Translations under genes and position numbers: made by a program
From: Candidatus Nomurabacteria bacterium
Lineage (GTDB): Bacteria > Patescibacteriota > Minisyncoccia > Phycocordibacterales > UBA918
Assembly: GCA_020632075.1 (NCBI GenBank)
Contig: JACKGH010000001.1
Coordinates: 665,778-729,777, forward strand
Reading direction: 5' to 3'
DNA length: 64,000 bases
The notes under the pieces: model-generated
Database searches by the model: none
Told to the model about the DNA's origin: nothing
The model's input: the letters and a program-made list of their open reading frames with translations, nothing else
Shown: positions 763-26,538 of the stretch, piece by piece
Numbering within the stretch: the stretch's first letter is position 1
Layout: each line of letters opens with the position of its first letter

Positions 763-867
763 TGCAGCTCGCTGCCGCCAGATTGAGGACTGGGTCAAAT
801 TCCTCAATCTGGCGAAGCGCCTGCATAAATTCGTAATAGTCGCGCTTTGCGCTCCTTTACTCATTCA
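763..867 (+). promoter_or_regulatory. Structured efp 5' leader element, copy A: 12-bp perfect hairpin (ccagattgagga/tcctcaatctgg) plus a second small hairpin
   Basis: Roughly 90% identical to 24396-24503; the differences inside stems are compensatory; it immediately precedes the efp ATG. Confidence 0.5.
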
Positions 868-1443
868 ATGGCAGTCCTATCCTACAACGAGATCACCCTG
901 AAGAAAGTTATCCTCCACGACGATGAGCCGTATTTGGTGATCGCGACGCACGTATTCCGCAAGCAACAGCGCAAGCCAGTGAACATCACCAAGCTGAAGA
1001 ATCTTAAGTCTGGCCGCGTGGTTGAGGTAACCTTCCACCAAAATGAAACTGTGAACGAGGCTGACCTCGAAACCCGCTCGGTAACCTTCATCTACAAAAA
1101 GCCAGACGAATACTGGTTCCACACTGCAGGCAAGCCAGCTGAGCGCTTTATGCTAAGCGAAGACCTGATCGGAGATCAAGGACGATTTCTGAAGGAACGT
1201 TCAGATATCGATGCACTCCTCTTCAATGACGAAGTCATCAGCCTCAAGTTCCCGATCAAGGTAGAGCTGAAGGTAAAAGAAGCGATGCCAGCTGTTAAAG
1301 GCAACACCTCAAGTGGCGCCCAAAAAGAAGTCACTCTCGAGACAGGCGCAACGATCATGGTACCGATGTTCATCAACGAAGGCGACGTGATCAGTATCAA
1401 TACTGAAACGGGAGAATACTCGGCGCGCGTTGATAAGGCGTAG
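868..1443 (+). CDS. efp: Elongation factor P
   Basis: MAVLSYNE...KLKNLKSG...GEYSARV matches EF-P along its full length; the loop reads RKQQRKP instead of KPGKG. Confidence 0.9.
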   Translation: MAVLSYNEITLKKVILHDDEPYLVIATHVFRKQQRKPVNITKLKNLKSGRVVEVTFHQNETVNEADLETRSVTFIYKKPDEYWFHTAGKPAERFMLSEDLIGDQGRFLKERSDIDALLFNDEVISLKFPIKVELKVKEAMPAVKGNTSSGAQKEVTLETGATIMVPMFINEGDVISINTETGEYSARVDKA

Positions 1444-1454
1444 TTGCATGATGT

Positions 1455-1485
1455 AAAAGGCCGGCCCCTTCGGGGCCGGCCTTTT
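1455..1485. terminator. Bidirectional intrinsic terminator between efp and rpsR
   Basis: aaaaGGCCGGCCCCttcgGGGGCCGGCCtttt, a perfect GC stem flanked by A- and T-tracts. Confidence 0.7.
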
Positions 1486-1500
1486 ACATTTTATTCGAGC

Positions 1501-1701
1501 CTATCGCTGAATATATGGCATAAGAGCCATGAAGCGAGCACGCTTGATCGCACGAGCGAAATTGCGCTGTCCCTTCGCGGTCATACCAGTACGACGGCGA
1601 TTGAACATACGAGCGTGCGGGTTCACATTGCTCTTGAGACGCAACACGTCTTTGTAGTCAACGTGGTGTGCTGGTTGGTTTTTAGTTTCTGTAGTTTCCA
1701 T
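1501..1701 (-). CDS. rpsR: 30S ribosomal protein S18
   Basis: RRRTGMTAKGQRNFARAIKRARFMALMPY signature; part of rpsF-ssb-rpsR synteny. Confidence 0.9.
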   Translation of the reverse strand: METTETKNQPAHHVDYKDVLRLKSNVNPHARMFNRRRTGMTAKGQRNFARAIKRARFMALMPYIQR

Positions 1702-1857
1702 GTTTTATTTGTGAGTTTGTCACAAAGCAAATTTGATTTTAGACCTGGAAATTGCTGGCTGGCGAGGCATCGCGAGAAAATGACACGAGTGGGACACACG
1801 AAGTCCAGCAAGTGTTATTTTACGAAGCGATAACGAAGCCAGCCGGTAATTTACTGT

Positions 1858-2298
1858 CTAAAATGGGATGTCCTCTGGATTGATCTCTTCTTCAGGGTAA
1901 TCCGGTACCGCTGGCGCCTTATCATCTGCTGCGCCAGAACTCTGGCTGCCAGCAGATGGAGCACCTGCCCCACCCCCCTTCGGACCAAACTGTACTCGGT
2001 CGGCGATCACCTCAGTGCGGTACTGCTTCTGACCATCCTTGTCCCAACTGCGAGTCTGCATGCGACCTTCAACATATGCGCCATTACCCTTTGAGAGGTA
2101 CTTTGCGCAGTTTTCAGCCTGCTTTCCAAACACCACAATATTGTGATAGTCAGCCTGCTCTTGCTTCTTTCCATCACGGTCAGTGTAGACACGGTTGGTA
2201 GCAAGCGAGAATGAACAGACATTCATACCGCTTGGAAGAGCTTTCAGTTCTGGATCTCGAGTGAGATTCCCGTAGACCATTGCTTTGTTAAGATACAT
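1858..2298 (-). CDS. ssb: Single-stranded DNA-binding protein
   Basis: OB-fold N-terminus, Gly/Ser-rich linker and acidic C-terminal tail ending DIPF. Confidence 0.9.
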   Translation of the reverse strand: MYLNKAMVYGNLTRDPELKALPSGMNVCSFSLATNRVYTDRDGKKQEQADYHNIVVFGKQAENCAKYLSKGNGAYVEGRMQTRSWDKDGQKQYRTEVIADRVQFGPKGGGAGAPSAGSQSSGAADDKAPAVPDYPEEEINPEDIPF

Positions 2299-2362
2299 AA
2301 TTTCGAATCAGTTATGGGTATTAAGTGAAGCTATTATAGCGTGCACTTCCCCAAAGGTCTAA

Positions 2363-2887
2363 CTAGCTAGCCTTTTCCTCTGATTCTTCTCCTTCTTCAG
2401 TAGTTTCTTCCTCTGAAGCTTCGTCAGACTCATCTTCGGCAGCTTCTTCTGTCTTATCTGCCTCAGCAGCATCAACATCAATGGTCTCAACCTTCTTGTT
2501 CGCTGTTGCCATCGCTTCGTGGTAGAAAAATGGATTTTCTTCCTCAACGTGCGTGAGCTTTACGAGCAAGTGTCGAAGAAGTTCCTTAGTGTGCTCAAGC
2601 ACTTCAGAGATCTCTTCGATCGCTGTTGCTGGAGCTTCAAATCGGACCCATCCAAAGTACGCACTGGTGAACTTTCGATTTCGTCCCTCAAGGTACTTAA
2701 CCAGCTCGTACGCCAGATCGATCCGCGCTGGAGCTTCTTCAACTGTGATGGTGCCACCATGCTTTGTAATTGCGTCTTTCAATGATTGAAAAACAGTAGC
2801 TACTTCCCCTTCAGCAACCGTTGGAAGTACGTGGAAGGCTAACTCGTATGAGTTCGCCTCGGCTGCTGGCATTTCTGTCTTAGACAT
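2363..2887 (-). CDS. rpsF: 30S ribosomal protein S6 with acidic C-terminal tail
   Basis: S6 fold motifs (YELAFHVLP...RIDLAYELVKY); sits upstream of ssb-rpsR. Confidence 0.9.
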   Translation of the reverse strand: MSKTEMPAAEANSYELAFHVLPTVAEGEVATVFQSLKDAITKHGGTITVEEAPARIDLAYELVKYLEGRNRKFTSAYFGWVRFEAPATAIEEISEVLEHTKELLRHLLVKLTHVEEENPFFYHEAMATANKKVETIDVDAAEADKTEEAAEDESDEASEEETTEEGEESEEKAS

Positions 2888-2973
2888 TTATATATATGCC
2901 TTAACTGATAACGGCAGCACTGTACCACAGGCTTAGGTGGCAAACAAGGGGGCGGAGCCGGCCTTGTTAAATT

Positions 2974-3921
2974 ATGCTAAAATACTCCAACATGAAACTT
3001 TCGCACGACGCAGTACTGTACCTCACTGGAGCAATTGCTGTGATCGGTATCATCACCGCAACGTACTTTGGCATGCAAAGCAAGGACCGAGCGGTACAAA
3101 TTGAAAATCTCCTCCAAGAACGTAATGCTCTCCTGCAAAAAAACAACCAGAAAGATTCTGAGCTAGCGGCAGCAAGCAGTACGATCGCTGAACTACATGG
3201 CGAACTAGAAGACTTCAAGGAAGAGCTGGAGGAACTCGCCGATGACTACCGCGATGAACGAAACCGCAATGAAGAATTTGAAGACCAGATCCGTGATCTC
3301 GCCGGTACTCTTGGTGATCTCGACAAACTTGCTAAAACCGATGAAGAACTCCTGGCAAAATATTCAAAGGTGTATTTTCTGAATGAAAACTACATTCCGG
3401 CCAAACTAGAGCAAATCCCAGATAAGTACATTCTGTCTGGCAAGAAGGACCAGTACTTCCATGCTGATGCATACGACCACTTAGAGGATCTATTGAAGGC
3501 GGCCGCAAAAGACGATGTCGATCTAAAAGTAGTGTCTGCCTATCGCTCATTTGACGAACAAACTGATCTGAAAGGACAGTACACACAAGTATACGGCACT
3601 GGCGCAAACGCGTTCTCGGCTGACCAAGGCTATTCAGAACACCAGCTCGGCACCACCGTAGATCTTACTGTTGATTCTGTCGGTGGAGCCTATACCAGCT
3701 TCAAGGATACCGAAGCATACCAGTGGTTGCTTGATAATGCATACAAATACGGTTTCATCCTCTCCTACCCTGAAGATAACGACTTTTACATCTTTGAACC
3801 ATGGCACTGGCGTTTCGTAGGCACTGAACTTGCTCGCGATCTCCACCGTAGCAGTAGCAAGACGTTCTACACCATGGACCAGCGCGAGATAAACGATTAT
3901 CTCCTCAATTTCTTTGACTAG
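2974..3921 (+). CDS. D-alanyl-D-alanine carboxypeptidase, peptidase M15B (VanY-like), with N-terminal TM segment and coiled coil
   Basis: SAYRSFDEQ...GYSEHQLGTTVDL...EPWHWRF matches the zinc D,D-peptidase motifs. Confidence 0.75.
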   Translation: MLKYSNMKLSHDAVLYLTGAIAVIGIITATYFGMQSKDRAVQIENLLQERNALLQKNNQKDSELAAASSTIAELHGELEDFKEELEELADDYRDERNRNEEFEDQIRDLAGTLGDLDKLAKTDEELLAKYSKVYFLNENYIPAKLEQIPDKYILSGKKDQYFHADAYDHLEDLLKAAAKDDVDLKVVSAYRSFDEQTDLKGQYTQVYGTGANAFSADQGYSEHQLGTTVDLTVDSVGGAYTSFKDTEAYQWLLDNAYKYGFILSYPEDNDFYIFEPWHWRFVGTELARDLHRSSSKTFYTMDQREINDYLLNFFD

Positions 3922-3992
3922 AGACTGGACAAGTTAGATAAATTATTGTAATTTCCTATCTGGAAAAACAACGACACAACGAGGCAAAATAG

Positions 3993-4811
3993 ATGTCGAT
4001 TACAACCGTGCCGAAGCTCTTTGACGTTGTCAACATCGTCGCTCAGACAACAGACCTGATCCGAGACAACTTCCGCAACCATAACCACTCGCCCCACCAG
4101 CTACGCTGCATGATCGATGCTGCATTACAAGACTGGGCAACCAATCAAGACCTGGGGTACATAAGCAGTCAAAGTAGTTCATACTCAGGGCAAGACTACG
4201 TCCTTTGCACCGAACCACTAGAGAGTGCTGATAAGTATGTGTACGGCTTCGCTGAAGCGACTACCATCGCCTGTATCATGGAGCGCGCAGGTGATAAGTG
4301 GTTACCACAAGTAGCTGTGATACACGATGCGCTGCACCAATGGACCTGGGCAACAAGTACAGCAACGCTACCACGCACCAACATTTGGCATAAAGGGTAT
4401 CACCCTTCTTCATTTGCCCCGCATCAGGTGCAAGCACCCTACCGCGTGCAGCTGTCGGAAGACCCCTTCTCCCTCTTTGATCTACACGGACTTGAACAGT
4501 CACTGCGATCAAACGGCGACCTGGTCACAATGTCAGACAACACACCAGGGTTGGTCGGTGGACTTATCCGACTAGGAACAGTGCACGGCAACGTGTATAC
4601 AGGCGACAATGCGTGTATTCCTGCCGCTTCAGGACTCATCTTGCGAGACACTTCAGCAGTCATCACTGATCTGGATGGTCAACCGATAGACGGGTTCGAA
4701 CTATGTCTTGATGGTAACTCTGCAAGCTTGCTCGTGCGCAATGGCATGATCATCGCTGCAAACCATCAGGTGAGCACTGCCATCCAACAGACGATTGCGG
4801 GCCAATTCTGA
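3993..4811 (+). CDS. IMPase/FBPase-superfamily protein, degenerate paralog (metal-binding motifs eroded)
   Basis: Aligns to the downstream paralog, but DPLDG has become EPLESADK and the EE metal site is absent. Confidence 0.55.
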   Translation: MSITTVPKLFDVVNIVAQTTDLIRDNFRNHNHSPHQLRCMIDAALQDWATNQDLGYISSQSSSYSGQDYVLCTEPLESADKYVYGFAEATTIACIMERAGDKWLPQVAVIHDALHQWTWATSTATLPRTNIWHKGYHPSSFAPHQVQAPYRVQLSEDPFSLFDLHGLEQSLRSNGDLVTMSDNTPGLVGGLIRLGTVHGNVYTGDNACIPAASGLILRDTSAVITDLDGQPIDGFELCLDGNSASLLVRNGMIIAANHQVSTAIQQTIAGQF

Positions 4812-4822
4812 AAACAACATTC

Positions 4823-4856
4823 CTCGTCCAGTGAAAGCTGGACGAGTTTTTGTTTC
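4823..4856 (+). terminator. Intrinsic terminator
   Basis: ctcgtccag-tgaaa-ctggacgag followed by ttttt. Confidence 0.7.
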
Positions 4857-4860
4857 TGTA

Positions 4861-4889
4861 TTGACGCAAAATGAAATTACTTGTACTAT
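4861..4889 (+). promoter_or_regulatory. Sigma-70-like promoter for the second IMPase-like gene
   Basis: TTGACG, a 17-nt spacer, then TACTAT; the start codon with an AGGAG RBS lies about 45 nt downstream. Confidence 0.5.
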
Positions 4890-4932
4890 CCAAATCAGCT
4901 TTGTAACTTTCATTTCAACCAGGAGCGCAGCA

Positions 4933-5781
4933 ATGCAACTACCTACACGGAACGATATGATCGACGTGGTCGTCGGAGTGATGAGTGTACCGAAAGACCA
5001 TTTTCGCTCCCTCATTCTGGTCGACACGAAAGAAGACGGCACGACCGTAAGTACAGTCGACAAACAGATCAATGACCGACTGCTGGAATGGAGTCGCCGG
5101 TACCAAGATGTCGGTTTTATCGGCGAAGAAGGCAACGACTACCACGGCGAGGATTATATCCTCTGTGCCGATCCGCTTGACGGCAGTGACGCCTTCGCCG
5201 GCGGCAACGGCAATGTCGGTATTGCTCTGACTCGTCTATGTCGCATTGCACACAATCTGTGGCTACCCGAAATCACCGTGGTCGCAGACCCGCTCCACAA
5301 CATGGTATGGACAGCCAGTCAAGACGAGCAGACCGTGGTGGCACGACTAGATCGTGGTCAGATGACAAGACAACAATGTCAAACCACTGATCGCTCGCCA
5401 CGTCGCGTAACGATCTCAACCTGGCCTGGTGTCCCCTTCCATCTCGATGAAGTCCAGCGCGAAGTCATGCGCCGACGTGAACAGTACTTCCAACAGGAAT
5501 TTGGCTGCATCTTGATCCCGAGCGCACTCGTAGCCTCTTGCCTGTGGCAAGCCACTGTTTTTGCCGGTAGTGGTGCGACCGAGTCGATCGCAACTTCCCT
5601 CCTTGTACAGCAAGCCGGAGGAGTGGCAGTAGACTGCTATGGTCAACCACTGATCCACTTCAAACTGGGTGAACGCTATGGCAAGGTCGATTTCATTCTG
5701 GAAGACGGCGCCATCATGGCCGCAAATCAATCGATCGCCGATGACCTGGTGAGGCTCATTCACTCCAAACAAGCTGCGTAG
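4933..5781 (+). CDS. Inositol monophosphatase-family protein (divergent; WD motif replaced)
   Basis: IGEEG...DYILCADPLDGSDAF matches IMPase motif A; the C-terminal region is collinear with IMPases. Confidence 0.6.
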   Translation: MQLPTRNDMIDVVVGVMSVPKDHFRSLILVDTKEDGTTVSTVDKQINDRLLEWSRRYQDVGFIGEEGNDYHGEDYILCADPLDGSDAFAGGNGNVGIALTRLCRIAHNLWLPEITVVADPLHNMVWTASQDEQTVVARLDRGQMTRQQCQTTDRSPRRVTISTWPGVPFHLDEVQREVMRRREQYFQQEFGCILIPSALVASCLWQATVFAGSGATESIATSLLVQQAGGVAVDCYGQPLIHFKLGERYGKVDFILEDGAIMAANQSIADDLVRLIHSKQAA

Positions 5782-5794
5782 CAGCAAAAACCAT

Positions 5795-5833
5795 GGCCCG
5801 TCCAGCATGCTGGACGGGCCTCTTTCTTTTTTG
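5795..5833 (+). terminator. Intrinsic terminator
   Basis: ggcccgtccagc-atg-ctggacgggcc plus tctttctttttt; its stem core is shared with the 4823 terminator. Confidence 0.75.
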
Positions 5834-5849
5834 GTATTCTATAGCACAC

Positions 5850-6824
5850 ATGAACATTTCCATTGCGCTACACGAAGGCTTAGTCGACGGCATTCCAGAA
5901 AAACCAGAACGATTTGTAGAGACCGTTATGTCTGACGTATTCATCTACCCCACCGTAGTGCGCAAGGTGTACAAAGATAACCGCAAAGGCTTCTTCACTG
6001 ACCTACGCGACCTTGAAGTCCGTCGCCAGTACTACGCCGAAGACTTCGCCTGGAACCAAGGTGCTTCGAAAGATATTCACCTTGGACTGCGCGGTGTCCA
6101 ACAGACAGAAGCCGGCGCCTACGAGATCATCGCGGCCGAACTGGCGGACGAATGGTTTATTGAAATGAAACGAGTCCGTGACGACGACACTCTCTTCCGT
6201 CGTCTCAATGAAGGCACTACTACTCGTGAAGATGTCGCTGCTCTCGCTAAAGCACAGACTGAAGCCCTCGATGCTCTAACCGAAGAATACCTCCACACGT
6301 TTGAAGACCTGCTCGCCCGCGGCCTACGCGACCTCTGGCACGCTCGGCTTGATGGTGACTTGCGTATGTTTGGCAAAAACTTCAGTGATCAGATCGCGCC
6401 GGAGCTAACTGACCATCGAGTTGATACGCTCCTCAACTTTTTCCATACTCACGACTACTTCACCAATATGGACCCCGACATGGCATCGGTTGCGATTGAT
6501 AACCACGCCGGAAACGTAGTCTTCCACGAAGAACGTCCGCAATTTATTGATATCCACCTCGCCAAGCGCGACTGGCGCGTGATCGACCGCAACAACAACA
6601 TCGCTCGCATCGCCACTTGTGTGCGCGTCCTCGGTAACAATGAGCTAGCTGACGCCATGTATGAAGCCTACCAAGACCATCATGAGCTAGCACCAGCTGA
6701 AGTAACTGCCTTCCAGGAAGCCTACAATGCGTTCATCAAGGGTTACTACTACACCTATTTGAAACAGCCTGACATTGCAAAGAAATATTTTACGTTTGCA
6801 GATGCGACTTTGGCTGAGCTGTAG
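5850..6824 (+). CDS. Putative phosphotransferase (APH/kinase-like fold)
   Basis: IDNHAGNVVF...FIDIHLAKRDW resembles the HGD-x-NxxN catalytic loop / DFE of APH-like kinases; weak support. Confidence 0.4.
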   Translation: MNISIALHEGLVDGIPEKPERFVETVMSDVFIYPTVVRKVYKDNRKGFFTDLRDLEVRRQYYAEDFAWNQGASKDIHLGLRGVQQTEAGAYEIIAAELADEWFIEMKRVRDDDTLFRRLNEGTTTREDVAALAKAQTEALDALTEEYLHTFEDLLARGLRDLWHARLDGDLRMFGKNFSDQIAPELTDHRVDTLLNFFHTHDYFTNMDPDMASVAIDNHAGNVVFHEERPQFIDIHLAKRDWRVIDRNNNIARIATCVRVLGNNELADAMYEAYQDHHELAPAEVTAFQEAYNAFIKGYYYTYLKQPDIAKKYFTFADATLAEL

Positions 6825-6828
6825 AAAC

Positions 6829-6860
6829 ACAAGGCCGGCCTTCGGGGCCGGCCTTTTGTT
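6829..6860. terminator. Bidirectional terminator (GGCCGGCC hairpin family)
   Basis: aaggccggccttcggggccggcctttt. Confidence 0.7.
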
Positions 6861-6956
6861 TTCTAACTTGTATTGTCTTCGTGCGTTCTCCATTAGCTGC
6901 GCCCGGACTTTTCTGCATCTTCTCCTCGTATCTCAGCGATTTTTTATACACCTCTT

Positions 6957-7715
6957 TCACCATCCACGGCTCGGCGCGCTTGCCGCGGTGTGGCACAGGG
7001 CGACATACGGACAGTCGGTTTCACCGTGGATGAGTTCTAGCGGCGCGTTTTTGATGACCTCGGCGTAGCTGTCGGTCTTCGGAAACGTGATCACCCCAGT
7101 AAACGAAATCGTCCCGCCGAGGTCGAAAAAACGCGCCGCCTCCTCATACGTCCCCGCATAAAAATGCACGTTAAACGGCACCTTCGCGTATTGTTTCAAA
7201 ACATCGTGCACATCTGCGTACACACTACGTCCGGTCGGACTTTCCTTCCCTGGCTGCGGCCCACGAGTATGGATCATCAGCGGTAAGCCAAGCTCATTGG
7301 CAAGCTCGATCTGCGCGATAAACGCTCGCTCTTGCGTTTCGTAACTCCCCTCTGGCGTATGCCAATAGTCAAAACCACACTCACCAACGCCGACCACTTT
7401 GGTACTCTTGGCAAGCTCACGATACAGATCACTATCGAATTCCTCCCCCTTACTCTTGAACGGTTCACCACCCTCACCGATCTCATCTTCATCGTGCATA
7501 CCCGGCACGGTCTGGATCGGATGGAGGCCAATAATTGCGTAGCAATTATTGGCCTCGCTTGCCAACTCCACCGCTCGCTTGCTCGTACTCGCCTTTGTTC
7601 CGACATTGATCACTGCCACATCCTCCTCAGCACATTTCTTCGCCATTTCCAAAGCATCCTCAGCAAAAGCAGAGAGATTAAGGTGTGCATGTGTATCAAT
7701 GTATTTGAAAGACAT
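6957..7715 (-). CDS. tatD: TatD-family metal-dependent DNase/hydrolase
   Basis: IDTHAHL at the N-terminus and GECGFDYW motif; 252 aa. Confidence 0.85.
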   Translation of the reverse strand: MSFKYIDTHAHLNLSAFAEDALEMAKKCAEEDVAVINVGTKASTSKRAVELASEANNCYAIIGLHPIQTVPGMHDEDEIGEGGEPFKSKGEEFDSDLYRELAKSTKVVGVGECGFDYWHTPEGSYETQERAFIAQIELANELGLPLMIHTRGPQPGKESPTGRSVYADVHDVLKQYAKVPFNVHFYAGTYEEAARFFDLGGTISFTGVITFPKTDSYAEVIKNAPLELIHGETDCPYVALCHTAASAPSRGW

Positions 7716-7717
7716 AG

Positions 7718-9205
7718 TTATGATTCAAGTCGTGCAAAGAGATTCTCCGGTTTCTTGTTTGTAAGCACTGCTTCTCTAATAACTCTTGAGGTTTCCGGCA
7801 TGTACGGCTCCAGTTCTACTGCTTTATACCAAAGTTGAATTACCAAGAATTTAATGATTTCTTTTGCGCTCTCAATTTCCTCACCAAGTTCTGATTTAAT
7901 TCTCTTATACGGCTCAGTGACTTGGATCTTTTCGTCAACCGTTTTAATACTCAGACTCATGTACCACTCAATCTGATCATTTCCTGACCAGATGTAATCC
8001 AAGGTTTTTTGAAAATCAAAATTTTTCAATTCTGACAACCCCACTCCTTGATCGTCCAAGAAACTCACGTTTGGCACCTCAACCGGTGCATCGAGGTGCG
8101 TCTCTGCCATTTTCATAATCCGCGCTGTGAGATTACCCAGGCCGTTCACGAGGTTCGCGGTGTACCACTCATCGAGTCGGTCCCAGGTGATGTCGGTGTC
8201 TTCAAATGGATGAACGTGGCGGAGGAGCAAGTAGCGGGTCGCCTCAGTACCATACCGAGCCGTCAGCTCGTACGGACTGATCACATTGCCAAGCGATTTA
8301 CTCATCTTCTGACCACCACTATTGATGAAGCCACCAATGAAGATCTGAGTTGAGGTTGGGAGTTCTGCTGAGAGGAGCATCGCCTGCCAGATAGCGCTCT
8401 GCTGACGAAGATTGTCCTTCCCCGCAAATTGCACCCCTGGCCACCAACCACCGAAGTCGGCTTTTTCTGGCCAGCCAGTCACTGAGATATAGTTGGTGAG
8501 GGCATCGAACCACACGTACATTACATGCTCTTCATCGTCTGGCACTGGTACACCCCAGGCCATCTTGGTCTTGAGGCGCGACACACTGAAGTCTTGCAGG
8601 CCGCCTTCCACAAACTTCTTAATCTCCGCCAAGCGAAAATCTGGCACCACAAAGTCTGCCTGTTCATAGAGGTCAAGGAGTGCCTGCTGATACTTCGAGA
8701 AGCGGAAGAAATAGTTCTCTTCCTCACGCACTTCGATCTCATCATTTGGATGGAGCGGACACTTGCCATGGTCAAGCTCGGAATCAGTCTTCTCAAGCTC
8801 ACACCCCTTGCAGTACTTCACTGCATGGGTCGCCTTGTAGATATCACCCTTCTCCTTGCAACGACGCCACATCTCTTGTGCTGCATGCTTATGATGCTCG
8901 TCAGTCGTGCGCACGAAGTTTGCTTCAGGCAAAATACCAAGCTCAGGCAAAAGCTTCTTGAATTCTTCCGCCAACTCATCGACAAACGACTGCGTATCCT
9001 TCCCAGCTTCCTGCGCTTTGTCGTAGATCTTTTGGCCGTGCTCGTCGGTACCTGTATTTAAAAACACCGGATGCCCCATCAACTTAAAGTACCGGGCGTA
9101 CGCATCGGCGCGCACCAGCTCAGTCGCAAACCCAATATGCGGACTTGAGTTCACATATGGAAGTGTCGTGGTGATGTACTTTGGTGTTTTGTCTGACATA
9201 GTCAA
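7718..9205 (-). CDS. metG: Methionyl-tRNA synthetase
   Basis: Class I HIGH-like region (PYVNSSPHIGF) and KMSKS. Confidence 0.9.
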   Translation of the reverse strand: MTMSDKTPKYITTTLPYVNSSPHIGFATELVRADAYARYFKLMGHPVFLNTGTDEHGQKIYDKAQEAGKDTQSFVDELAEEFKKLLPELGILPEANFVRTTDEHHKHAAQEMWRRCKEKGDIYKATHAVKYCKGCELEKTDSELDHGKCPLHPNDEIEVREEENYFFRFSKYQQALLDLYEQADFVVPDFRLAEIKKFVEGGLQDFSVSRLKTKMAWGVPVPDDEEHVMYVWFDALTNYISVTGWPEKADFGGWWPGVQFAGKDNLRQQSAIWQAMLLSAELPTSTQIFIGGFINSGGQKMSKSLGNVISPYELTARYGTEATRYLLLRHVHPFEDTDITWDRLDEWYTANLVNGLGNLTARIMKMAETHLDAPVEVPNVSFLDDQGVGLSELKNFDFQKTLDYIWSGNDQIEWYMSLSIKTVDEKIQVTEPYKRIKSELGEEIESAKEIIKFLVIQLWYKAVELEPYMPETSRVIREAVLTNKKPENLFARLES

Positions 9206-9238
9206 AATACTCTAGCACAATCGGAGTGAAATGGAACA

Positions 9239-9270
9239 GAAAGGCCGGCCCCTTCGGGGCCGGCCTTTTG
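9239..9270. terminator. Bidirectional terminator, identical core to the 1455 hairpin
   Basis: aaaggccggccccttcggggccggcctttt. Confidence 0.7.
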
Positions 9271-9274
9271 TCTT

Positions 9275-10666: not shown

Positions 10667-10671
10667 TTTGC

Positions 10672-12627: not shown

Positions 12628-12648
12628 AGTGTCTAGTATACCACCGCC

Positions 12649-13224: not shown

Positions 13225-13454
13225 CATAAAATATAACACAATCTGAGTCTCCTAGACCGAAACACTGCCAGAGGCTCAACGTCCTCGCTCCAAGTATCGT
13301 CGCTGCGGATGTTTCGCTACTGGCAGTGCTCAGTCTAGACCCACAAGGATAGAGTTGGGATTGTGTCGGCACTCAGCGAGTAGGGACTATGCGCGGGAGG
13401 GTTTGGCTGGGGCGCGCAAGGAGCGTGTGAGTCGAGTGCCGACCAATTACGACT

Positions 13455-17088: not shown

Positions 17089-17119
17089 AGAATTGTAAGT
17101 TATGTGTATCAGACATAGT

Positions 17120-17160
17120 CTCGGTGGTGCGGCTGCCTTTGGCAGCCGCGCCACCGAGAC
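17120..17160. promoter_or_regulatory. 20-bp near-perfect palindrome in the ileS 5' leader
   Basis: gtctcggtggtgcggctgcc-ttt-ggcagccgcgccaccgagac lies about 35 nt upstream of the ileS ATG. Confidence 0.4.
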
Positions 17161-17210
17161 ACGCAACGTATCAGGCTGCTTTTTTATCCTATCACCTATT
17201 CGTATTTTGC

Positions 17211-17242
17211 AAAGACCAAAAAGAGCGCCGAAGCGCTCTATT
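17211..17242. terminator. Bidirectional terminator
   Basis: agagcgc-cgaa-gcgctct with flanking A/T tracts. Confidence 0.6.
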
Positions 17243-17260
17243 TTCTGTTGGCACAAACAA

Positions 17261-17478
17261 TCACTCGAAGTCCAAGTCACCAGCATAGTTACGGTCGCAT
17301 GGCACCGAACCAGCCTGAGGTTGTTGCTGGGGTTGCGGCTGTTGTGTTTGACGCAACCAGGGGACTTGTTGTTGCATCTGTTGGGGACCTTTACCGGTCG
17401 TGGGTAAAGTGTCCAAAAAGGTCTCCTTGATAAGAATCTGATTAGGATCAGTCTCTTCGTCAGTGACACTCTCGTTAG
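17261..17478 (-). CDS. Small Gln/Pro-rich hypothetical protein (72 aa)
   Basis: ORF between two terminators; low-complexity QQPQPQQQPQ run; the ORF-track N-terminal extension overlaps a terminator hairpin, so the start is placed at MTNESV. Confidence 0.35.
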
Positions 17479-17580
17479 TCATCTCTCTGTCCTCGTTTGT
17501 TTGAGTGGGTCTACGTTGTACTACCCTACCTGAAGTATCGAACGACACTGGAGGGTTCGCAAGTGTGCGCAGTGTACAAA

Positions 17581-17612
17581 ACAAAGGCCGGGCGCTTCGC
17601 GCCCGGCCTTTG
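17581..17612. terminator. Bidirectional terminator
   Basis: aaaggccgggcgc-ttc-gcgcccggccttt. Confidence 0.65.
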
Positions 17613-17634
17613 TTTGTGCACTTAATGAGTATCA

Positions 17635-18045
17635 TTACGCAGCTTCTTGCTGTGGAGCACTTTCCTCATCTTGTGCAGCCTTAGCTTCCATTGACCGTAC
17701 CAAATCTGGCGCGTCGATTCCTTCCATGCCAGCAGCTGGAGCGCTATCTGGCTCTAGAGTATGCCGGCCCTGCACAATATCCTCGTTACTATAGTCAGTC
17801 GGTTCGATACCAGGATCGCCCGCCCACTCATCAACCGATTCCATGTCCAAATCGCCGTCTGCCGGCCCTGACTTTCGTTCTGCTTGTAAAACAATATCTT
17901 TATTTGTGAACACCCGCCCTTGCTCTACACCAGCAGCAGGATCGTCTATTTGAAACGCGTCAGGGTTCGCGCCTGTTTCAGCTGCACGTCGAGCCAACTC
18001 ATCCTTTGATGGCAATTCAGGTCCCTTTTTTCCAAATCCAAACAT
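17635..18045 (-). CDS. Acidic, likely disordered hypothetical protein
   Basis: 136-aa ORF rich in D/E/P/A; stop/start overlap with the downstream ORF; no recognisable domain. Confidence 0.5.
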   Translation of the reverse strand: MFGFGKKGPELPSKDELARRAAETGANPDAFQIDDPAAGVEQGRVFTNKDIVLQAERKSGPADGDLDMESVDEWAGDPGIEPTDYSNEDIVQGRHTLEPDSAPAAGMEGIDAPDLVRSMEAKAAQDEESAPQQEAA

Positions 18046-18094
18046 ACAATATATATTACAAAAGTTTTAAACAGTTCTCCTATGATACCAAAAA

Positions 18095-19180
18095 CTACTC
18101 AACCGTCACCTTGATATCCTTTGGTTCTCCCGTTGTATCGATCCGTACCACCTCTCGGCCGAGCACCTGGCCGCGCTTGGTCTCCACGCTACAGCGCCAC
18201 AGACCAGAGAAAAAACTGGTGTTACGAGTGTAGCCTCTATAGCCACCTTCATTAGTACCTGCGATCGTATACCCATATCGAAAATGTTCCTGCCAATCAC
18301 CATTAACATCTTTATATTCCCAACGGTGATAGATATCAGTCTCAAGTTTTGTCGGCGCATACACACGCGCATAACACGCGATCGAACTACCAGTCGGATG
18401 CAGGATCGGTCTCGTCAGCGGCAACCTGCGATACCACGGCTGTTCTTCAGTCTCGATCCGATAGATCTTATTTCCAGTTGGCGCAGTGTAGGTCTCGACT
18501 GATTGCACCATCTCAAGTTGGGTGAGTGAAAGCGGGATCGGTGGGATCAAACTTGTGAAATACAGCGCATTGAATCCGATGTAGATCGAGGCCACAGTGA
18601 AGATCACCCGCTGCGTATTGACCGCCATGAAGTTTGGCACGATCCGAAATAGCACTTGCACCACAAAGGTCACGATCATGAGTGCAATGAGTCCACTCAG
18701 AATGAAAATGCCGTCACCCATCTTCCCAGTAATGACGGGCACAACCAATACGATGTATGAAAAGACTCCGATGAAGTAAAGCGCAATATGATACACGAGT
18801 CGATCAGACCGTTTACTCACGAATTCGTTACCAAAGATCACCGCGAGGATGATGAGCAAAAACGGCGCACTCGCCACCCAATCTCCACTCCGGCCGTAGA
18901 AAATGAGCATTCCAGAGAGCAACCCACCAAATGCGTACTGCATCCCGACTGGCGCAAAACGTTTGAAGAAGCGCGTGAGGAACCCTGGACCACGCTCTGC
19001 CACCCCCACATACAGCAGTAGCAAAGCAGTGGTGGACAATAACGCGTAAAACAACAGGATGAGATTATCAACAAGATTGTCGATCTGATTGAGCAAGATC
19101 GTATCGGTAATAAACCCGAGCACGAACGCCACCGTAAGCCAGTGTCGGTGCAGTAATTTAAATGTAGAACCAACGGTCAT
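18095..19180 (-). CDS. Polytopic membrane protein with C-terminal extracytoplasmic domain (hypothetical)
   Basis: About 7 predicted TM helices, then a 150-aa soluble domain; start placed at MTVGSTF. Confidence 0.6.
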   Translation of the reverse strand: MTVGSTFKLLHRHWLTVAFVLGFITDTILLNQIDNLVDNLILLFYALLSTTALLLLYVGVAERGPGFLTRFFKRFAPVGMQYAFGGLLSGMLIFYGRSGDWVASAPFLLIILAVIFGNEFVSKRSDRLVYHIALYFIGVFSYIVLVVPVITGKMGDGIFILSGLIALMIVTFVVQVLFRIVPNFMAVNTQRVIFTVASIYIGFNALYFTSLIPPIPLSLTQLEMVQSVETYTAPTGNKIYRIETEEQPWYRRLPLTRPILHPTGSSIACYARVYAPTKLETDIYHRWEYKDVNGDWQEHFRYGYTIAGTNEGGYRGYTRNTSFFSGLWRCSVETKRGQVLGREVVRIDTTGEPKDIKVTVE

Positions 19181-19247
19181 AGCAGCATCATACCAAACAA
19201 AAAGCACTCGGACAGAGTCCGAGCGCTGCGTTTGTGTAACGAATACT

Positions 19248-20105
19248 TCATGCGACCAACGACGGTCGCCATTCGTACTCTGGCTCTTGTACAATTTCTT
19301 GGAACCGTGCGAAGAAATCGCAGTACGCATTCTTCGCATCAGGCACCAGATAATCCAAGATATCGACGTGGCCGAAATGTACGTGCGCCAAACGGTCTTG
19401 GCCAGACTGAGTGGTAGAGAGATGCCACAGCGGCTGCTTCTCACCGCGACTGACCCACAGGATCTTCACGCCAAAGAACACAAGCGCAAAGCCAGGTGGC
19501 GGTGAAACCGCCTGGTGCACGGTATCACCTGGACCTTTACACGCCAGAAGCTGTCCCCCTTCATCACCAAAATGGATAGTGAGCAGACTGCGATCGACAT
19601 GCACTTTTGCCCCTGTTTGCTCTACCCCGCTTGGGTAGTACAGACTCCGCAGGGTCGCGGTGCTGTACGGCATCGTCTGTTGCAGACAAGCCCGATATGA
19701 CGCAGCTGCGCCAAGACCATACAGTTCATCGAGCGCGTCCATGATCTGTGCACCAAGACCAGCAGCATAGGAACGCAAGCTGTCATGCAATACCAGGAAC
19801 CTGTAGTCGTCTGGCTGAGGTTTGATCTTGTCCAACTTGATAGCAGCATTCAAGGCTGGGTTACTATGGAAAAACCACTTCCGGTCGTGGTTGCCTCCAT
19901 TACGGACCACGAGTCCGACATCGGCCTCGCTCTCACCCGATAGCTGCACGTGCCACTGATCGACATCATCCAGCCTCACTCGACGAGCGACGAAATCTGG
20001 AAACGAGGCCTTGACCTGCTCGACCCGAGCCTGTTCGATCGGGAACATCGCCCAACCGTTTTCCCAAAGTTCTGTTGCAATGTCACTGAAGTTTTGTTGT
20101 GTCAC
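19248..20105 (-). CDS. 2OG-Fe(II) oxygenase-family protein
   Basis: HVDRS..LTIH (HxD) and distal WHLS...RLAHVHF match the isopenicillin-N-synthase-like 2OG oxygenase pattern. Confidence 0.6.
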   Translation of the reverse strand: MTQQNFSDIATELWENGWAMFPIEQARVEQVKASFPDFVARRVRLDDVDQWHVQLSGESEADVGLVVRNGGNHDRKWFFHSNPALNAAIKLDKIKPQPDDYRFLVLHDSLRSYAAGLGAQIMDALDELYGLGAAASYRACLQQTMPYSTATLRSLYYPSGVEQTGAKVHVDRSLLTIHFGDEGGQLLACKGPGDTVHQAVSPPPGFALVFFGVKILWVSRGEKQPLWHLSTTQSGQDRLAHVHFGHVDILDYLVPDAKNAYCDFFARFQEIVQEPEYEWRPSLVA

Positions 20106-20304
20106 GCTCTTATCTCCACGTCAAGAAATCAATCTGAGTAGAACCATACTACATTCCCCTCGGACTGCAAGGGTAATTAAATTGCCCCGTCACCGCGGTA
20201 GCGGCAACGGGGCTTGGGGATCGAGGTGTTGTGGACCTCGTTCATACTGGACGACTTGTGGTTCCAGTGGCAGCTAGTATAAACGGTCTTGGAAAATTAG
20301 CAAG

Positions 20305-21570
20305 CTAGAATGCCGCCGGTACTGGAAATGCTTCACAGAGCTTTTGCACCTCGGCTTTGATCTGCTCTTTTTCTGCCGTATCGTCCTTTGCCTTAAGCGT
20401 GCGGATCATGAGCTCTGCCAATTGCCTCGCCTCCCCTTCTTGCATACCACGAGTGGTCATTGCTGGGGTACCAAAACGAATACCTGATGGATCGAGCGCA
20501 GAGCGTGTTTCGTCCGCGATCATATTTTTATTCAGTGTAATACCTACTTCATCGAGTACTGATTCTGCTTCCTGTCCAGTGATACTAAGCGATCCATAGA
20601 CATCTGCCAACAAGAGATGATTATCTGTTCCGCCGGCAAGCAGTCTGATATCGTGTGCTTTGAATACTTCCTCCATCGCCTTGGCATTCTTTAAGACCTG
20701 CACCGCGTACTCCTTGAAGCTTGGCTTGAGTGCTTCGCCAAACGCCACCGCCTTGGCAGCAATGATGTGCATGTGTGGCCCCCCTTGAATTCCTGGGAAA
20801 ACCGTCTTATTGATACGCTTTGCAAGCTCAGCACTCTCACGCACCATGATCATACCGCCACGTGGACCACGGAGCGTCTTGTGGGTCGTGGTAGTCATTA
20901 CATCAAAACCGTAGTCAAACGGATTCTTCAGTACCCCAGCTGCAATAAGACCCGCAATGTGGGCCACATCAGCTACGGTATAGGCACCGACTTCCTTCGC
21001 GATTTCCACAAACTTTGCATAGTCGAGTTCACGACTGTACGCTGAGAAGCCAGCGAGGATGATCTTTGGCTTATGCTCAAGTGCCATCGCTCGCAAGTGG
21101 TCATAGTCGATCTCTCCCGTATCAACATCTTTCATTTTGTAACGGACAAAGTTGAAGACTTTATTGATGCTCGTGGTCGGGTGACCGTGGGTGAGGTGCC
21201 CACCGTGTGAGAGGTCCATGCCAAGTACCGTATCACCCGGCTCCATCAAGGCGAAATACATCGCGACATTCGCAGCTGCACCGCCAAGCGGCTGCACGTT
21301 TACATATTCACAATTAAAAAGCTGCTTGGCGCGCTCGATCGCCAAGGTTTCTACCACATCAGTGTACTGCTGGCCGCCATAGTAGCGTTTGCCGGGATAA
21401 CCTTCGGCGTACTTATTGGTAAGCACTGAACCCTCTGCCTCACGTACCGCAAGACTGACGTAGTTCTCACTCGGGATCAATTCGATCCCCGTTCGCTCCC
21501 GCTCTTCTTCTCCGATGAGTGCTTCGTAGACTTCTGTATCCTGCGCTTTTATGTGTTGATATTCGTTCAT
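20305..21570 (-). CDS. glyA: Serine hydroxymethyltransferase
   Basis: GYPGKRYYGG, HGGHLTHG, TTTTHKTLRGPRGG PLP-lysine motif. Confidence 0.95.
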   Translation of the reverse strand: MNEYQHIKAQDTEVYEALIGEEERERTGIELIPSENYVSLAVREAEGSVLTNKYAEGYPGKRYYGGQQYTDVVETLAIERAKQLFNCEYVNVQPLGGAAANVAMYFALMEPGDTVLGMDLSHGGHLTHGHPTTSINKVFNFVRYKMKDVDTGEIDYDHLRAMALEHKPKIILAGFSAYSRELDYAKFVEIAKEVGAYTVADVAHIAGLIAAGVLKNPFDYGFDVMTTTTHKTLRGPRGGMIMVRESAELAKRINKTVFPGIQGGPHMHIIAAKAVAFGEALKPSFKEYAVQVLKNAKAMEEVFKAHDIRLLAGGTDNHLLLADVYGSLSITGQEAESVLDEVGITLNKNMIADETRSALDPSGIRFGTPAMTTRGMQEGEARQLAELMIRTLKAKDDTAEKEQIKAEVQKLCEAFPVPAAF

Positions 21571-21666
21571 AACTATTTAAAAATTAGCTGAGTAACTGCT
21601 CTACAGAAAGTGAACGAATAGGATTAGATCATGGTCGAGTTTGTTAGTGTGAGCAGTATAGCATAG

Positions 21667-21704
21667 AAAAATGGGCGGGCCCCGAAGGGGCCCGCCCATT
21701 TTTC
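21667..21704. terminator. Bidirectional terminator
   Basis: aaaaatgggcgggcccc-gaa-ggggcccgcccattttt. Confidence 0.7.
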
Positions 21705-21713
21705 TACCCCTCC

Positions 21714-22100
21714 TTATGCATGACTCAGGTCTTCAGCTTCAATGATGTTGGCTCGTTCTACTTTCTGTATCAGCAATCGTGCGACCACATCACCAGGCGC
21801 AAACACCTTAGTCTCGGGACTATGATTGGTCACCTCAAGCACGATCTCATCTCGATAACTCGAATCTACCAACGCAGCCGTGACCGTGACCGTGTGACCG
21901 ATCGCCATACTCTTTGGATCCTTGATCCAACCAATGTACCCCACCGGAATTGCCACCGCTACCCCAGTCGAGACCGCTACCTTTGCTCCCGGTTCTACCG
22001 GCACTTCAAACTGTGAAAACAGATCAATTCCTGGACTAGCACTGCGCGCATACGCTGGCAACTTTGCTTGTTCAGTGAGACGCTTGATGAGAATTTCCAT
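21714..22100 (-). CDS. dut: dUTP diphosphatase
   Basis: SPGIDL and DSSYRDEI motifs of trimeric dUTPase; 128 aa. Confidence 0.85.
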   Translation of the reverse strand: MEILIKRLTEQAKLPAYARSASPGIDLFSQFEVPVEPGAKVAVSTGVAVAIPVGYIGWIKDPKSMAIGHTVTVTAALVDSSYRDEIVLEVTNHSPETKVFAPGDVVARLLIQKVERANIIEAEDLSHA

Positions 22101-22110
22101 AGGCTAATGA

Positions 22111-22773
22111 TTAATCGAGTAACGGTCGAACCAGTCCGTACAATTCGGTATTGATATTATCTTTGCTCCGCAATTTATCATCCATCATACAATTGACGAT
22201 GCGCCACTTCTCTAAGTCAGCAATATTTTCTGCACAGTTCTGGATGGCTGCCTGATACACCGCATCGGTCTCCGTGTGCCCAAGCTGTGGCTTCCGTTCG
22301 TCGGTCGTGAGCAGCGCGTGGCGCATTTCTGCTGGCATGTTGAGATATGCGACCATATCGGGACGCGGGATCTTGAACACATCGTACTCAAGTCGCTGCA
22401 GCCACAGCAGAAATGCGCCACGCTTATCAACATCAGATATTTTCGCCCCTTGATGCAGCATGTTAGCGGTCACGTAGCGATCAAGAATGACATGCTTCCC
22501 TTCTTCTAACCAAGACATCAATAGCTCACGTGCTTCAAAACGATCGCCAGCAAAGAGGATCGCGGACAAACGCGGATCGAGATCGACAAAATTACCGTGT
22601 GTCTCGTCGAGCCACTCACGAATGTACCCACCGAAGAAGGAGTCATCATAGCGAGGAAACTCCAACGTCTCGATCTGCATCCCCTCGTTCCGGAGTCGCT
22701 CCACGAGCATTTTGGTCTGCGTTGCCTTTCCAGCACCGTCAGCCCCTTCGATCACGATCAATTTACCTGACAT
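22111..22773 (-). CDS. tmk: Thymidylate kinase
   Basis: P-loop IVIEGADGAGKAT, DRY motif and LID region. Confidence 0.9.
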   Translation of the reverse strand: MSGKLIVIEGADGAGKATQTKMLVERLRNEGMQIETLEFPRYDDSFFGGYIREWLDETHGNFVDLDPRLSAILFAGDRFEARELLMSWLEEGKHVILDRYVTANMLHQGAKISDVDKRGAFLLWLQRLEYDVFKIPRPDMVAYLNMPAEMRHALLTTDERKPQLGHTETDAVYQAAIQNCAENIADLEKWRIVNCMMDDKLRSKDNINTELYGLVRPLLD

Positions 22774-22815
22774 AAAACTATTGAACTTTTGCTCAATAGT
22801 ACCACACTGCCAGAA

Positions 22816-23817
22816 CTACTCTGCTGCCTCTTCAGTCTTTTCGTGAATTTTTTTATTGAAACCACCGACAACTGCCATCTCTGCCTTGATCGGCGGATGT
22901 GATTCGTAGTTATTGAGCGTTACATGCTCTGGAGCAAACGTATCCAGCGACGTAACTGAATCATCAATCGTGACCGTTGGGAATGGCAGTGGCTCACGAG
23001 AGATCTGTTCCTTTGCTTGCTCAATGTGATTTTCATAGATATGCACATCACCAAAGGTATGCACAAACTCCCCGGCTTCGTAGCCCGTGATCTTCGCCAA
23101 GATCTCGGTGAGTAGCGCGTAGCTTGCGATATTGAACGGTACCCCAAGGAAGATATCTGCTGAACGCTGGTACAGCTGCAAGCAGAGTTTCCCGTGATTG
23201 ATATTCACTTGGTACATGTTGTGACAGATCGGAAAACGACACGCCTCACCAGGCTTCGCCATACCATACAAGTATTCAGGGTTCCAACTATTCACAATCG
23301 CGTTGTGGCAACTCGGATCAGCTTTGATCTCGTCTACCACCCACTGTAGCTGATCAACCCCACCACCATCCTTGCGTGGCCAGTTACGCCACATCTCACC
23401 GTAGATACGCGGCAAGTTTCCGTGTTGCTCCGCAAAGTCGTCATCGGTTTCGATCTTCTCGATGAACTCTTCTTTGGTAAGTTCAGGCCAACCCTTCTTT
23501 TCGCGCTTGTCATTATAGATACGAAGCGGATAATCGTCCCAAATATGCACTTTGTTATCTACCAAGTACTTAATGTTGGTCTGTCCAGACAGGAACCAAT
23601 ACAACTCATGCAGTACTCCACGCCAGTACACCTTCTTGGTAGTGAGGAGCGGTAGTCCTTGACTGAGATCATACCGCATCTGCTTGCCAAACAGGCTGTA
23701 GGTTACATCACCAGTATCTGCATCTTCCTGTCGACTACCAGTGTCGATGAGTTCCTGCATCAGATCTAAGTATTGGTACTCTGGGTGTTTTTTCTCCATA
23801 GTGCTATTTTTTATCAT
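22816..23817 (-). CDS. thyA: Thymidylate synthase (ThyA) with N-terminal extension
   Basis: RFPICHNMYQV...LYQRSADIFLGVPFNIASYALL, catalytic Cys present. Confidence 0.9.
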   Translation of the reverse strand: MIKNSTMEKKHPEYQYLDLMQELIDTGSRQEDADTGDVTYSLFGKQMRYDLSQGLPLLTTKKVYWRGVLHELYWFLSGQTNIKYLVDNKVHIWDDYPLRIYNDKREKKGWPELTKEEFIEKIETDDDFAEQHGNLPRIYGEMWRNWPRKDGGGVDQLQWVVDEIKADPSCHNAIVNSWNPEYLYGMAKPGEACRFPICHNMYQVNINHGKLCLQLYQRSADIFLGVPFNIASYALLTEILAKITGYEAGEFVHTFGDVHIYENHIEQAKEQISREPLPFPTVTIDDSVTSLDTFAPEHVTLNNYESHPPIKAEMAVVGGFNKKIHEKTEEAAE

Positions 23818-24361
23818 CCATTAAATCTCGGCCACTAAAGTTGCTCCCCCAATTATCCTTGCCTCGTGCTTCGTTGGCGTAGTTTCCATTTGGCTTGCTA
23901 GAAAGTTTTGAAAACGTCAGCTGCGCGATCTCCATTCCCGGACGCAAAATGATCGGTACGTTGTTGAGGTTGCAGAGTTCAAAGGTGATGTGAAGGAAAT
24001 GTCCGGGATTGATGAGACCAGCCGTGTTGTGGATCATAAGTCCTACGCGCGCGAGCGAAGACTTCCCTCCCACCTGTACGAGGTAATGATTGGAACCAAA
24101 GTATTCTTTAGAGATACCAAGCACTGACACACCAGGATGCAGTACAAACTCACCACCATCTTCCACTTCGATCTCACGTGTCTTGGCGTAGATCTTTCGT
24201 GCTGGGTCGACCATGTGCGTGGCATGTTCATCGTTCACCACAAACTTATTCCCGAGCAAAATGTCATAACTCGCTGGCTGCAAGCGTGCCTTATCAAACG
24301 GCTCGAGTGTGATCTCTTCTGCTTCAACGGCTTTTACGATATCGACGTCAGAAAGAAACAT
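23804..24361 (-). CDS. dcd: dCTP deaminase
   Basis: dUTPase-like fold with the dcd-specific C-terminal segment; 185 aa. Confidence 0.85.
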   Translation of the reverse strand: MFLSDVDIVKAVEAEEITLEPFDKARLQPASYDILLGNKFVVNDEHATHMVDPARKIYAKTREIEVEDGGEFVLHPGVSVLGISKEYFGSNHYLVQVGGKSSLARVGLMIHNTAGLINPGHFLHITFELCNLNNVPIILRPGMEIAQLTFSKLSSKPNGNYANEARGKDNWGSNFSGRDLMDDKK

Positions 24362-24395
24362 ATAAAAGTGATTTAGTAATAATTTTCAGTTGCTT

Positions 24396-24503
24396 TGCAG
24401 CTCGCTACAGCCAGATTTAGGACTGGGACAAAAGTCCTAAATCTGGCTAAGCGCCTGCATAAATTCGCAATAGTCGCCTTACGGCTCGTTTGCTCATTCA
24501 ACA
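24396..24503 (+). repeat. Copy B of the efp-leader element, including a 7-codon pseudo-start (MKVLSVP*) mimicking the efp N-terminus
   Basis: ccagatttaggac/gtcctaaatctgg stem with compensatory changes versus copy A; conserved core ggctaagcgcctgcataaattcgcaatagtc. Confidence 0.5.
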
Positions 24504-26522: not shown

Positions 26523-26538
26523 TTTTGAGAAGAGATGA

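Follow-up and report, generated by a model that had tools for sequence, protein, structure and literature searches.

A probable family of structured repeats dispersed between genes of Candidatus Kaiserbacteria and related Paceibacteria

Introduction

Whether a structured sequence that lies directly in front of a gene serves that gene, or belongs to a repeat that has landed there, is the question raised by a 64,000-nucleotide stretch of DNA (hereafter, the window) from a genome deposited as Candidatus Nomurabacteria bacterium (GCA_020632075.1, contig JACKGH010000001.1, positions 665,778 to 729,777 of the forward strand), whose CYTH and efp proteins have exact matches recorded for Candidatus Kaiserbacteria. 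The window holds two similar structured elements of about 100 bp, copy A, which abuts the start codon of efp, and copy B, which separates a CYTH-protein gene from dcd. An initial annotation had proposed a translational or transcriptional control element of efp, with copy B as a decayed duplicate that included a remnant of the efp start, and had named a small structured RNA family as an alternative. Here, we estimate at roughly 60% the probability that copies A and B, together with a third copy C, are members of a dispersed, insertion-prone family of structured intergenic repeats present in Candidatus Kaiserbacteria and related Paceibacteria. The element lands in short spacers by housekeeping genes, often with a conserved UGA or UAA serving as the stop codon of the upstream gene. 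Loci compared with the window, taken from genomes and metagenome contigs, are designated by L numbers; L039, for example, derives from the Kaiserbacteria assembly GCA_020632135.1.

Structure of the repeated element

Copy A (763..867) sits between the gene of an extracytoplasmic function (ECF) sigma factor (66..659, minus strand) and efp (868..1443, plus strand), while copy B (24396..24500), whose end overlaps the CYTH stop codon (24494-24496), separates CYTH from dcd; in both cases the minus strand would be the likelier sense strand. Both copies were recovered where they had been annotated, and a covariance model built from 18 copies (model R1) scores them at 113 bits (E 6e-23) and 110 bits, respectively. 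The reported high similarity of the two stands, at a measured identity of 83.5% over the intervals originally compared instead of about 90%. The 25-nt conserved core, GCGCCTGCATAAATTCGYAATAGTC, has exactly two occurrences in the window, where shuffled sequences predict none, and the element ends with CTCATTCA, at position 867 in A and 24500 in B.

Differences between A and B fall mostly at paired positions and are compensatory. In the long hairpin, as had been noticed, a G/C pair becomes T/A within the stem, and a C-G pair also becomes A-T at the stem base; the second hairpin reads gcgc-ttt-gcgc in A and gcc-ttac-ggc in B. In addition, the Y of TTCGYAAT covaries with the R of TTTRCTC. On both strands, A and B fold far better than shuffled sequence (z of -5.1 to -6.7). 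The long hairpin is larger than previously described, continuing out to TGCAG/CTGCA through two internal loops with the layout TGCAG-CU-CGCU-RC-[13-16 bp stem]...[stem]-R-AGCG-C-CUGCA, and the 3′ half forms a second domain, in which the pairings AUAAAU/AUUYA and GYAA/UURC surround the short hairpin. In plus-strand coordinates of copy A, helix P1 comprises 763-767/821-825 plus 770-773/816-819, P2 comprises 776-789/801-814 with a loop at 790-800, P3 comprises 826-830/863-867 and 833-836/857-860, and P4 comprises 842-845/849-852, with the invariant core spanning 817-841.

A model-guided alignment of 26 distinct copies extends this pattern to the whole family. Pairing is found in 91% of the cells, compared with 74% in shuffled alignments and 31-40% when the partners are slid, and 30 of the 36 pairs show changes on both sides, which favors, as the initial annotation had argued, selection for a base-paired structure over a simple protein operator. 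G.U cells that are only half compensated number about 9, compared with 137 double changes, and this rarity fits a complementarity that is kept on both strands.

The unit is a mosaic of 105-140 bp, made of a core hairpin of about 50 nt (P3-P4) and of a long, freely covarying hairpin (P1-P2) that exists in at least three apical types. The internal loops of P3-P4, UAGUCG and CUCNUU, and the flanking AUAAAUUCG are nearly invariant. The core of about 50 nt also occurs without the long hairpin and in tandem, most clearly in L018, where three 53-nt units follow one another, with related arrangements in L014, L026, L017 and L032; in L014, the P3 arms have an entirely different sequence with complementarity retained. 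In the alignment, copy A is closest not to its orthologues but to copies from other loci of other genomes, a pattern that points to subfamilies and to replacement. Hairpin lengths vary out of frame and no reading frame is conserved; a small minus-strand open reading frame (ORF; MSK...) was considered and discarded, as its frame is broken by the difference in hairpin length between A and B. A pseudoknot between the P2 loop and CUCNUU was likewise rejected, no correlation being seen across copies. As a separate observation, a second, unrelated repeat set (attgcgaagcaatccag... / gattgcttcgtcattctttctcgcaaagac) lies directly upstream of the core-module array in the A/T-rich contig of L014 (2500-2700).

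Distribution of the family

Exact matches to the core were searched with 22 bases in one genome per species and with 20 bases in metagenome contigs, and were found in seven Patescibacteria species assemblies and in 19 metagenome contigs, respectively. The loci that carry the core all share the architecture described above, with differing stem sequences. Model R1 recovered further copies: L005, L010, L017 and L020 have two each, and L032 has three. More than 25 copies are known beyond the three of the window, in Kaiserbacteria and Paceibacteria assemblies. No copy was found in viral contigs. The search of related genomes and the covariance modelling that had been proposed for A and B returned a structured family, close to the small-RNA-family alternative of the initial annotation, and spoke against a role specific to efp.

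The genes adjoining the copies include ECF sigma/efp, CYTH/dcd, RNR/PNPOx-like, secE-nusG, class I lysS, secA and obg and, in addition, rplJ-rplL, the region downstream of rplL, rplW-rplB, dcd-thyA and others. At least 15 unrelated loci are involved, with copies in both orientations and genes that share no common pathway. A full-text literature search retrieved nothing on interspersed structured repeats of such a kind in Patescibacteria; the repeat family is previously undescribed.

With filters off, model R1 finds exactly three copies in the window. Copy C (30305..30391) is more divergent (51 bits, E 2e-9) and is inverted with respect to A and B: the equivalent of their likelier sense strand is here the plus strand, antisense to the flanking genes. 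It lies past the terminator of the RNR gene (30445..32139, minus strand) and 5 nt ahead of the ATG of a PNPOx-like gene (29912..30304, minus strand). Its long hairpin is shorter (AATTCGCCC/GGGCGAATT) and its core reads CTAAATTCGTAATAGTCG...CTCATTTACTCATTTAA.

Insertion at orthologous sites

The clearest picture of how a copy comes to occupy a spacer is offered by the CYTH-dcd site. In five relatives, whose CYTH proteins are 76-88% identical, copy B is missing and the CYTH stop codon and the dcd ATG are 1 nt apart (GAATAAT/ATG), whereas the window has 133 additional bases that correspond to copy B and a 34-nt tail. By this comparison, copy B is a recent, lineage-specific insertion between CYTH and dcd and not, as first annotated, a decayed duplicate of the efp 5′ region. 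The A/T-rich tail (24362..24395, minus strand), delimited by the comparison of empty and filled sites and by a survey of upstream boxes, reaches the dcd ATG (24359-24361) and was inserted along with copy B; on the plus strand it carries a TAATTT box 10 nt ahead of P1, and tails resembling it are present in L006 and L024/L025.

The string ATG AAG GTC TTA TCA GTG CCG TAG next to copy B (24504..24527), formerly taken for a mimic or decayed copy of the efp N-terminus, lies outside the element and is the reverse complement of the final CYTH codons (..YGTDKTFI.., minus strand). This C-terminus, YYGTDKTF[IV][IV]E*, is conserved in 120 listed homologues, all of 224 residues except for a minority with longer called starts. 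The string agrees with the efp start at only 10 of 18 bases, and the AACA that follows CTCATTC is part of the tail of the element itself in other copies. The resemblance to the efp start is a coincidence.

Three further sites show the same kind of polymorphism, bringing to four the orthologous sites at which the element is present in some genomes and absent from others. The sigma-efp spacer is filled with orthologous copies in the window, L006, L013 and L041, and measures 43 nt without any element in L039/L040, whose efp is 87% identical. Upstream of secE, the spacer is filled in L005 and L032, and the alignment shows it to be cleanly empty in the window (27655..27700, ahead of secE-nusG), where model R1 gives no hit even with filters off. 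Between dcd and thyA, L032 has a copy and the genes of the window overlap. Moreover, the spacer downstream of RNR is occupied both in the window and in L005/L009, but the copy of the window is reversed relative to that of L005/L009 and sits at the other end of the spacer; the latter copy abuts the RNR stop. Filled and empty orthologous sites of this kind imply that the element reaches new sites by moving or by being copied. On a related note, the dcd product of L032 (10677-11291) is about 25 residues longer than those of its relatives, with a lysine-rich tail (...KSTKRSGKPKKKYK*) that terminates on the UGA of the inserted repeat core, a case in which the element has reshaped the C-terminus of a protein.

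At the junctions, no terminal inverted repeats are seen, the ends TGCAGCTCGC... and ...TTTRCTCATTYA not being inverted copies of each other, and the flanks of A and B share neither sequence nor inverted or direct repeats. Comparison of copy B with the five empty sites yields no more than 1-2 ambiguous nt (AT) at the junctions, with no visible target duplication. Ahead of the element on the minus strand, all copies have the pentamer T(R)AAT, which pairs with an internal AUUUA and covaries with it in divergent copies (UGCUU/AAGUA, UAAGC/GCUUA). At the sites of copy B and secE, this pentamer falls on native flanking sequence; in L032 and L041, it travels with the element and stands next to a second pentamer.

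Relationship to known repeat families

The general properties of miniature inverted-repeat transposable elements and interspersed repeats are all found here, as the element is non-coding, multi-copy and polymorphic for presence or absence at orthologous sites. In behavior, it is best described as closest to ERIC, REP/BIME and the hairpin elements derived from IS200/IS605, although the features that define each of these (terminal inverted repeats, target-site duplication, GTAG, a linked transposase) were not found. ERIC elements, also known as IRU, are about 127 bp long. Like them, the present element is an imperfect palindrome of about 100-130 bp that occupies transcribed intergenic or untranslated (UTR) positions in either orientation, is present or absent at orthologous sites, is highly conserved across genera and shows compensatory stem changes; unlike them, it has no terminal inverted repeats, no TA duplication was seen, there is no sequence similarity, the hosts belong to the phylum Patescibacteria, and the unit is built of two modules, one of which, the 50-nt core, can stand apart and is also found in tandem arrays. 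With REP/BIME and the IS200/IS605-derived PATEs, it shares extragenic hairpins located near both ends, the lack of terminal inverted repeats and of any visible target-site duplication, module mosaics, a near-pure Watson-Crick covariation and a position after stop codons and terminators. The pairing of the T(R)AAT junction with an internal segment recalls the pairing of guide and cleavage site in IS608, where, however, the partner is on the other side of the hairpin. A REP is an imperfect palindrome of 20-40 bp with a GTAG head, whereas this element, at threefold that length, measures 105-140 bp and has two hairpins and no GTAG. PATEs carry subterminal hairpins and insert beside a fixed sequence of 4-5 nt, and in both groups a cognate Y1 (HUH) transposase is flanked by, or acts on, these hairpins. 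Correia/NEMIS elements and RPEs are comparable as small structured repeats at gene ends that supply stop codons or alter termini and are co-transcribed with their neighbors, but the terminal inverted repeats and TA duplication of the former and the in-frame insertion within genes of the latter are not seen here.

On this basis, the element would spread as a non-autonomous mobile or recombining unit. Its stems would be kept complementary because the hairpin is needed for spread and/or is tolerated or useful in mRNA, and the element would be transcribed passively, mostly from its minus strand, as an intercistronic or UTR part of neighboring mRNAs. A single-stranded route of mobilization, of the HUH/Y1 type, could be invoked as a guess. 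At efp, the element would be an old insertion into the sigma-efp spacer.

Several observations weigh against such a mobile repeat. Copy number is modest, with three copies per 64 kb, and two Kaiserbacteria loci of 20 kb are devoid of any. No transposase was found near any copy: no Y1_Tnp is encoded by the flanking genes that were scanned or listed in the window and loci, and a tblastn search of 265 kb with an approximate IS608 TnpA query gave no match, a weak negative given the crudeness of the query. Y1_Tnp genes do exist in Kaiserbacteria, as in L039 (296-967, 223 residues, RAYT-like), but that transposase is flanked by a different REP family. Junctions could be read at three sites, and T(R)AAT fits a target, an element end or a recombination core alike. 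Furthermore, conservation of the core exceeds that of usual selfish repeats and suggests recognition by a conserved cellular factor. Specifically, the 20-nt unpaired core is identical across lineages of 25-52% G+C, so that selfish spread alone is insufficient to explain it and there is room for a host function or a specific recognition step.

The L039 transposase is of interest in itself, as it is bracketed on both sides (243-1320) by a palindromic repeat, TGCGGAGGAAAGGCCTTCGCAA, in a REPtron-like arrangement within a genome of the candidate phyla radiation; this repeat is absent from the window.

Other candidates were also compared. Rfam 15 at the gathering threshold recognized only three tRNAs in the whole window and, in permissive E-value mode on A, B and C, returned hairpin noise only; the best hit, to folP RNA, reached 20 bits, whereas the gathering score of that family is 99. 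When the K-turn, sarcin-ricin and hammerhead cores were compared by eye, a position that defines the motif did not fit in any of the three: the 3-nt bulge is missing, A14 is a C, and the junction is not three-way. The likeness to the GTPase-center sequence of 23S rRNA, CGUAAUAG, is an 8-mer at chance level, and a PyrR-binding loop has no Rfam match. Integron attC sites, diversity-generating retroelement template and variable repeats (TR/VR), retrons and type III antitoxin repeats were set aside, with no cassettes, coding VR, reverse transcriptase or toxin nearby.

Strand, stop codons and alternative functions

If the element is transcribed, the question arises of which strand matters and for what. 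The minus orientation is co-directional with the neighboring genes at about 14-15 independent loci and the plus orientation at about four, the sigma and efp genes being divergent. The minus-strand fold is the more stable in 25 of 26 copies, by a mean of 6 kcal/mol. Gene orientation and folding energy thus favor a structured transcript on the strand opposite to that of the initial annotation. One P3 pair, which is A.C on the originally annotated plus strand in half of the copies, is G.U on the other strand, where the P4 loops are often GUAA, of the GNRA type, and P3 contains tandem G.A. In addition, the gene that precedes the element ends within the minus-strand AAUGAG (AAUAAG in L009), which supplies its stop codon: this holds for CYTH at copy B, where the stop is UGA, for RNR in L005 and L009, and for dcd in L032. 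At several other loci, the stops lie within the first bases of the element.

These features could also be read as those of a functional cis-acting RNA motif, in which the P3-P4 loops serve as the binding site of a conserved protein, or else make up a small ribozyme or a site of processing, and mobility is secondary; such a motif would have been recruited to many mRNAs, behind stop codons or in front of genes, for processing, 3′-end stability or reinitiation in a genome poor in Shine-Dalgarno sequences. This possibility deserves consideration, even if it is held with much less than even confidence. All four helices covary around an invariant core, the core occurs alone or in tandem without the long hairpin (L018, L014, L026, L032), the orientation of the element is biased with respect to transcription toward the more stable fold, with GNRA-type loops, tandem G.A and a stop codon recurring at the base of P3, and only 8 of 43 surveyed genes of the window have a Shine-Dalgarno-like motif. 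Nevertheless, the element is turned the other way at about four independent loci, including one within the rplW-rplB (S10) operon, and orthologous sites function in close relatives without the element. The gene set is incoherent, no Rfam family or known ribozyme core matches, and wobble pairs are scarce on both strands, G.U accounting for 2-5% of the predicted pairs.

A somewhat less probable proposal, which we regard as speculative, is that the P3-P4 core is a new functional module, either a catalytic or protein-recognized RNA that marks gene ends in the Shine-Dalgarno-poor and largely leaderless Kaiserbacteria, or the recognition end of a new hairpin-guided mobile element. Were the mobile-element version true, the pairing of AUUUA with T(R)AAT would describe a sequence-guided inserter aimed at stop-codon contexts.

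Leaderless mRNAs are suggested to be common in the genome of the window by the scarcity of Shine-Dalgarno-like motifs together with the spacing of -10 boxes, since many genes have a TAnnnT box that ends 6-8 nt before the ATG, for example TATAAT-GAACTC-ATG (starts surveyed include 41441, 42047, 42553, 40270-41349, 52088-53374 and 25260). Such boxes bear on a further alternative, that the element is an independently transcribed small RNA gene on the plus strand, driven by a TAnnnT box of the -10 kind that accompanies the element at about 10-12 nt upstream of P1, acting as a leader into efp or the PNPOx-like gene at some sites and running antisense into convergent genes at others. A TAnnnT box is indeed found at a near-fixed distance 5′ of P1 in copy B of the window, L005, L010 (twice), L004/L011, L013, L024/L025 and L027, good boxes (AATAAT and TATATT) lie 12 nt before P1 at the efp loci of L006 and L013, and the boxes close to many ATGs suggest promoters of a -10-driven, leaderless type. 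We consider this improbable all the same: TAnnnT is frequent by chance in A/T-rich spacers and several of the cases are orthologous, the box of copy A is poor (CATAGA), the plus-strand fold is the weaker one in 25 of 26 copies, and in most copies no terminator follows the element on the plus strand, which runs into antisense coding sequence. Promoter and terminator scans of copies A and B gave no sigma-70 site and no terminator within the element. Neither hairpin is followed by a T run on either strand, as an intrinsic terminator would be, and the real terminators of the genome are a separate GGCCGGCC...TTTT family.

Least tenable of all is the original reading as an efp control element with a decayed duplicate at copy B: copy A does abut the efp ATG directly, in an arrangement retained in L006, L013 and L041, but the family is scattered over unrelated genes in both orientations, with none of the constant position and orientation by one gene or a coherent gene set that mark a gene-specific leader, the close efp relative in L039/L040 does without it, and at copy B the flank is conserved CYTH coding sequence and the insertion tail is unrelated to the flank of copy A.

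The family of dispersed repeats is relevant in several respects. In Patescibacteria, genomes are tiny, regulation is poorly known and genetics is lacking. A structured motif with more than 25 copies and strong covariation would be a well-supported new entry for RNA-family databases. The family also shows that annotating the element as an efp leader or riboswitch, however tempting, is wrong, and can serve as a marker of recent genome change, copy B having split a translationally coupled CYTH-dcd pair. Finally, it poses a tractable question, namely why a 20-nt unpaired core stays identical despite very different base composition.

Other features of the window

Two other kinds of repeats were encountered in the window. 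The first consists of bidirectional, G+C-rich terminator hairpins of nearly identical sequence (AAAGGCCGGCCCCTTCGGGGCCGGCCTTTT) at 1456-1485, 6825-6862, 9240-9269, 17583-17612, 21671-21700, 26488-26525 and 27910-27939, two of which are 100% identical across 30 nt. The second is a direct repeat of 49 bp, 82% identical between its copies at 36874-36922 and 62908-62956, that contains a promoter-like TATTTACAAAT...TATATTG. A tRNA gene lies upstream of each copy (tRNA-His, 35783-35855; tRNA-Val, 62775-62848), and plus-strand ORFs follow. Adjoining tRNA-His, an ORF at 36084-36704 (minus strand) that begins with VVRTFYVDESGDLGP... and looks DUF3800-like may mark a small integrated island.

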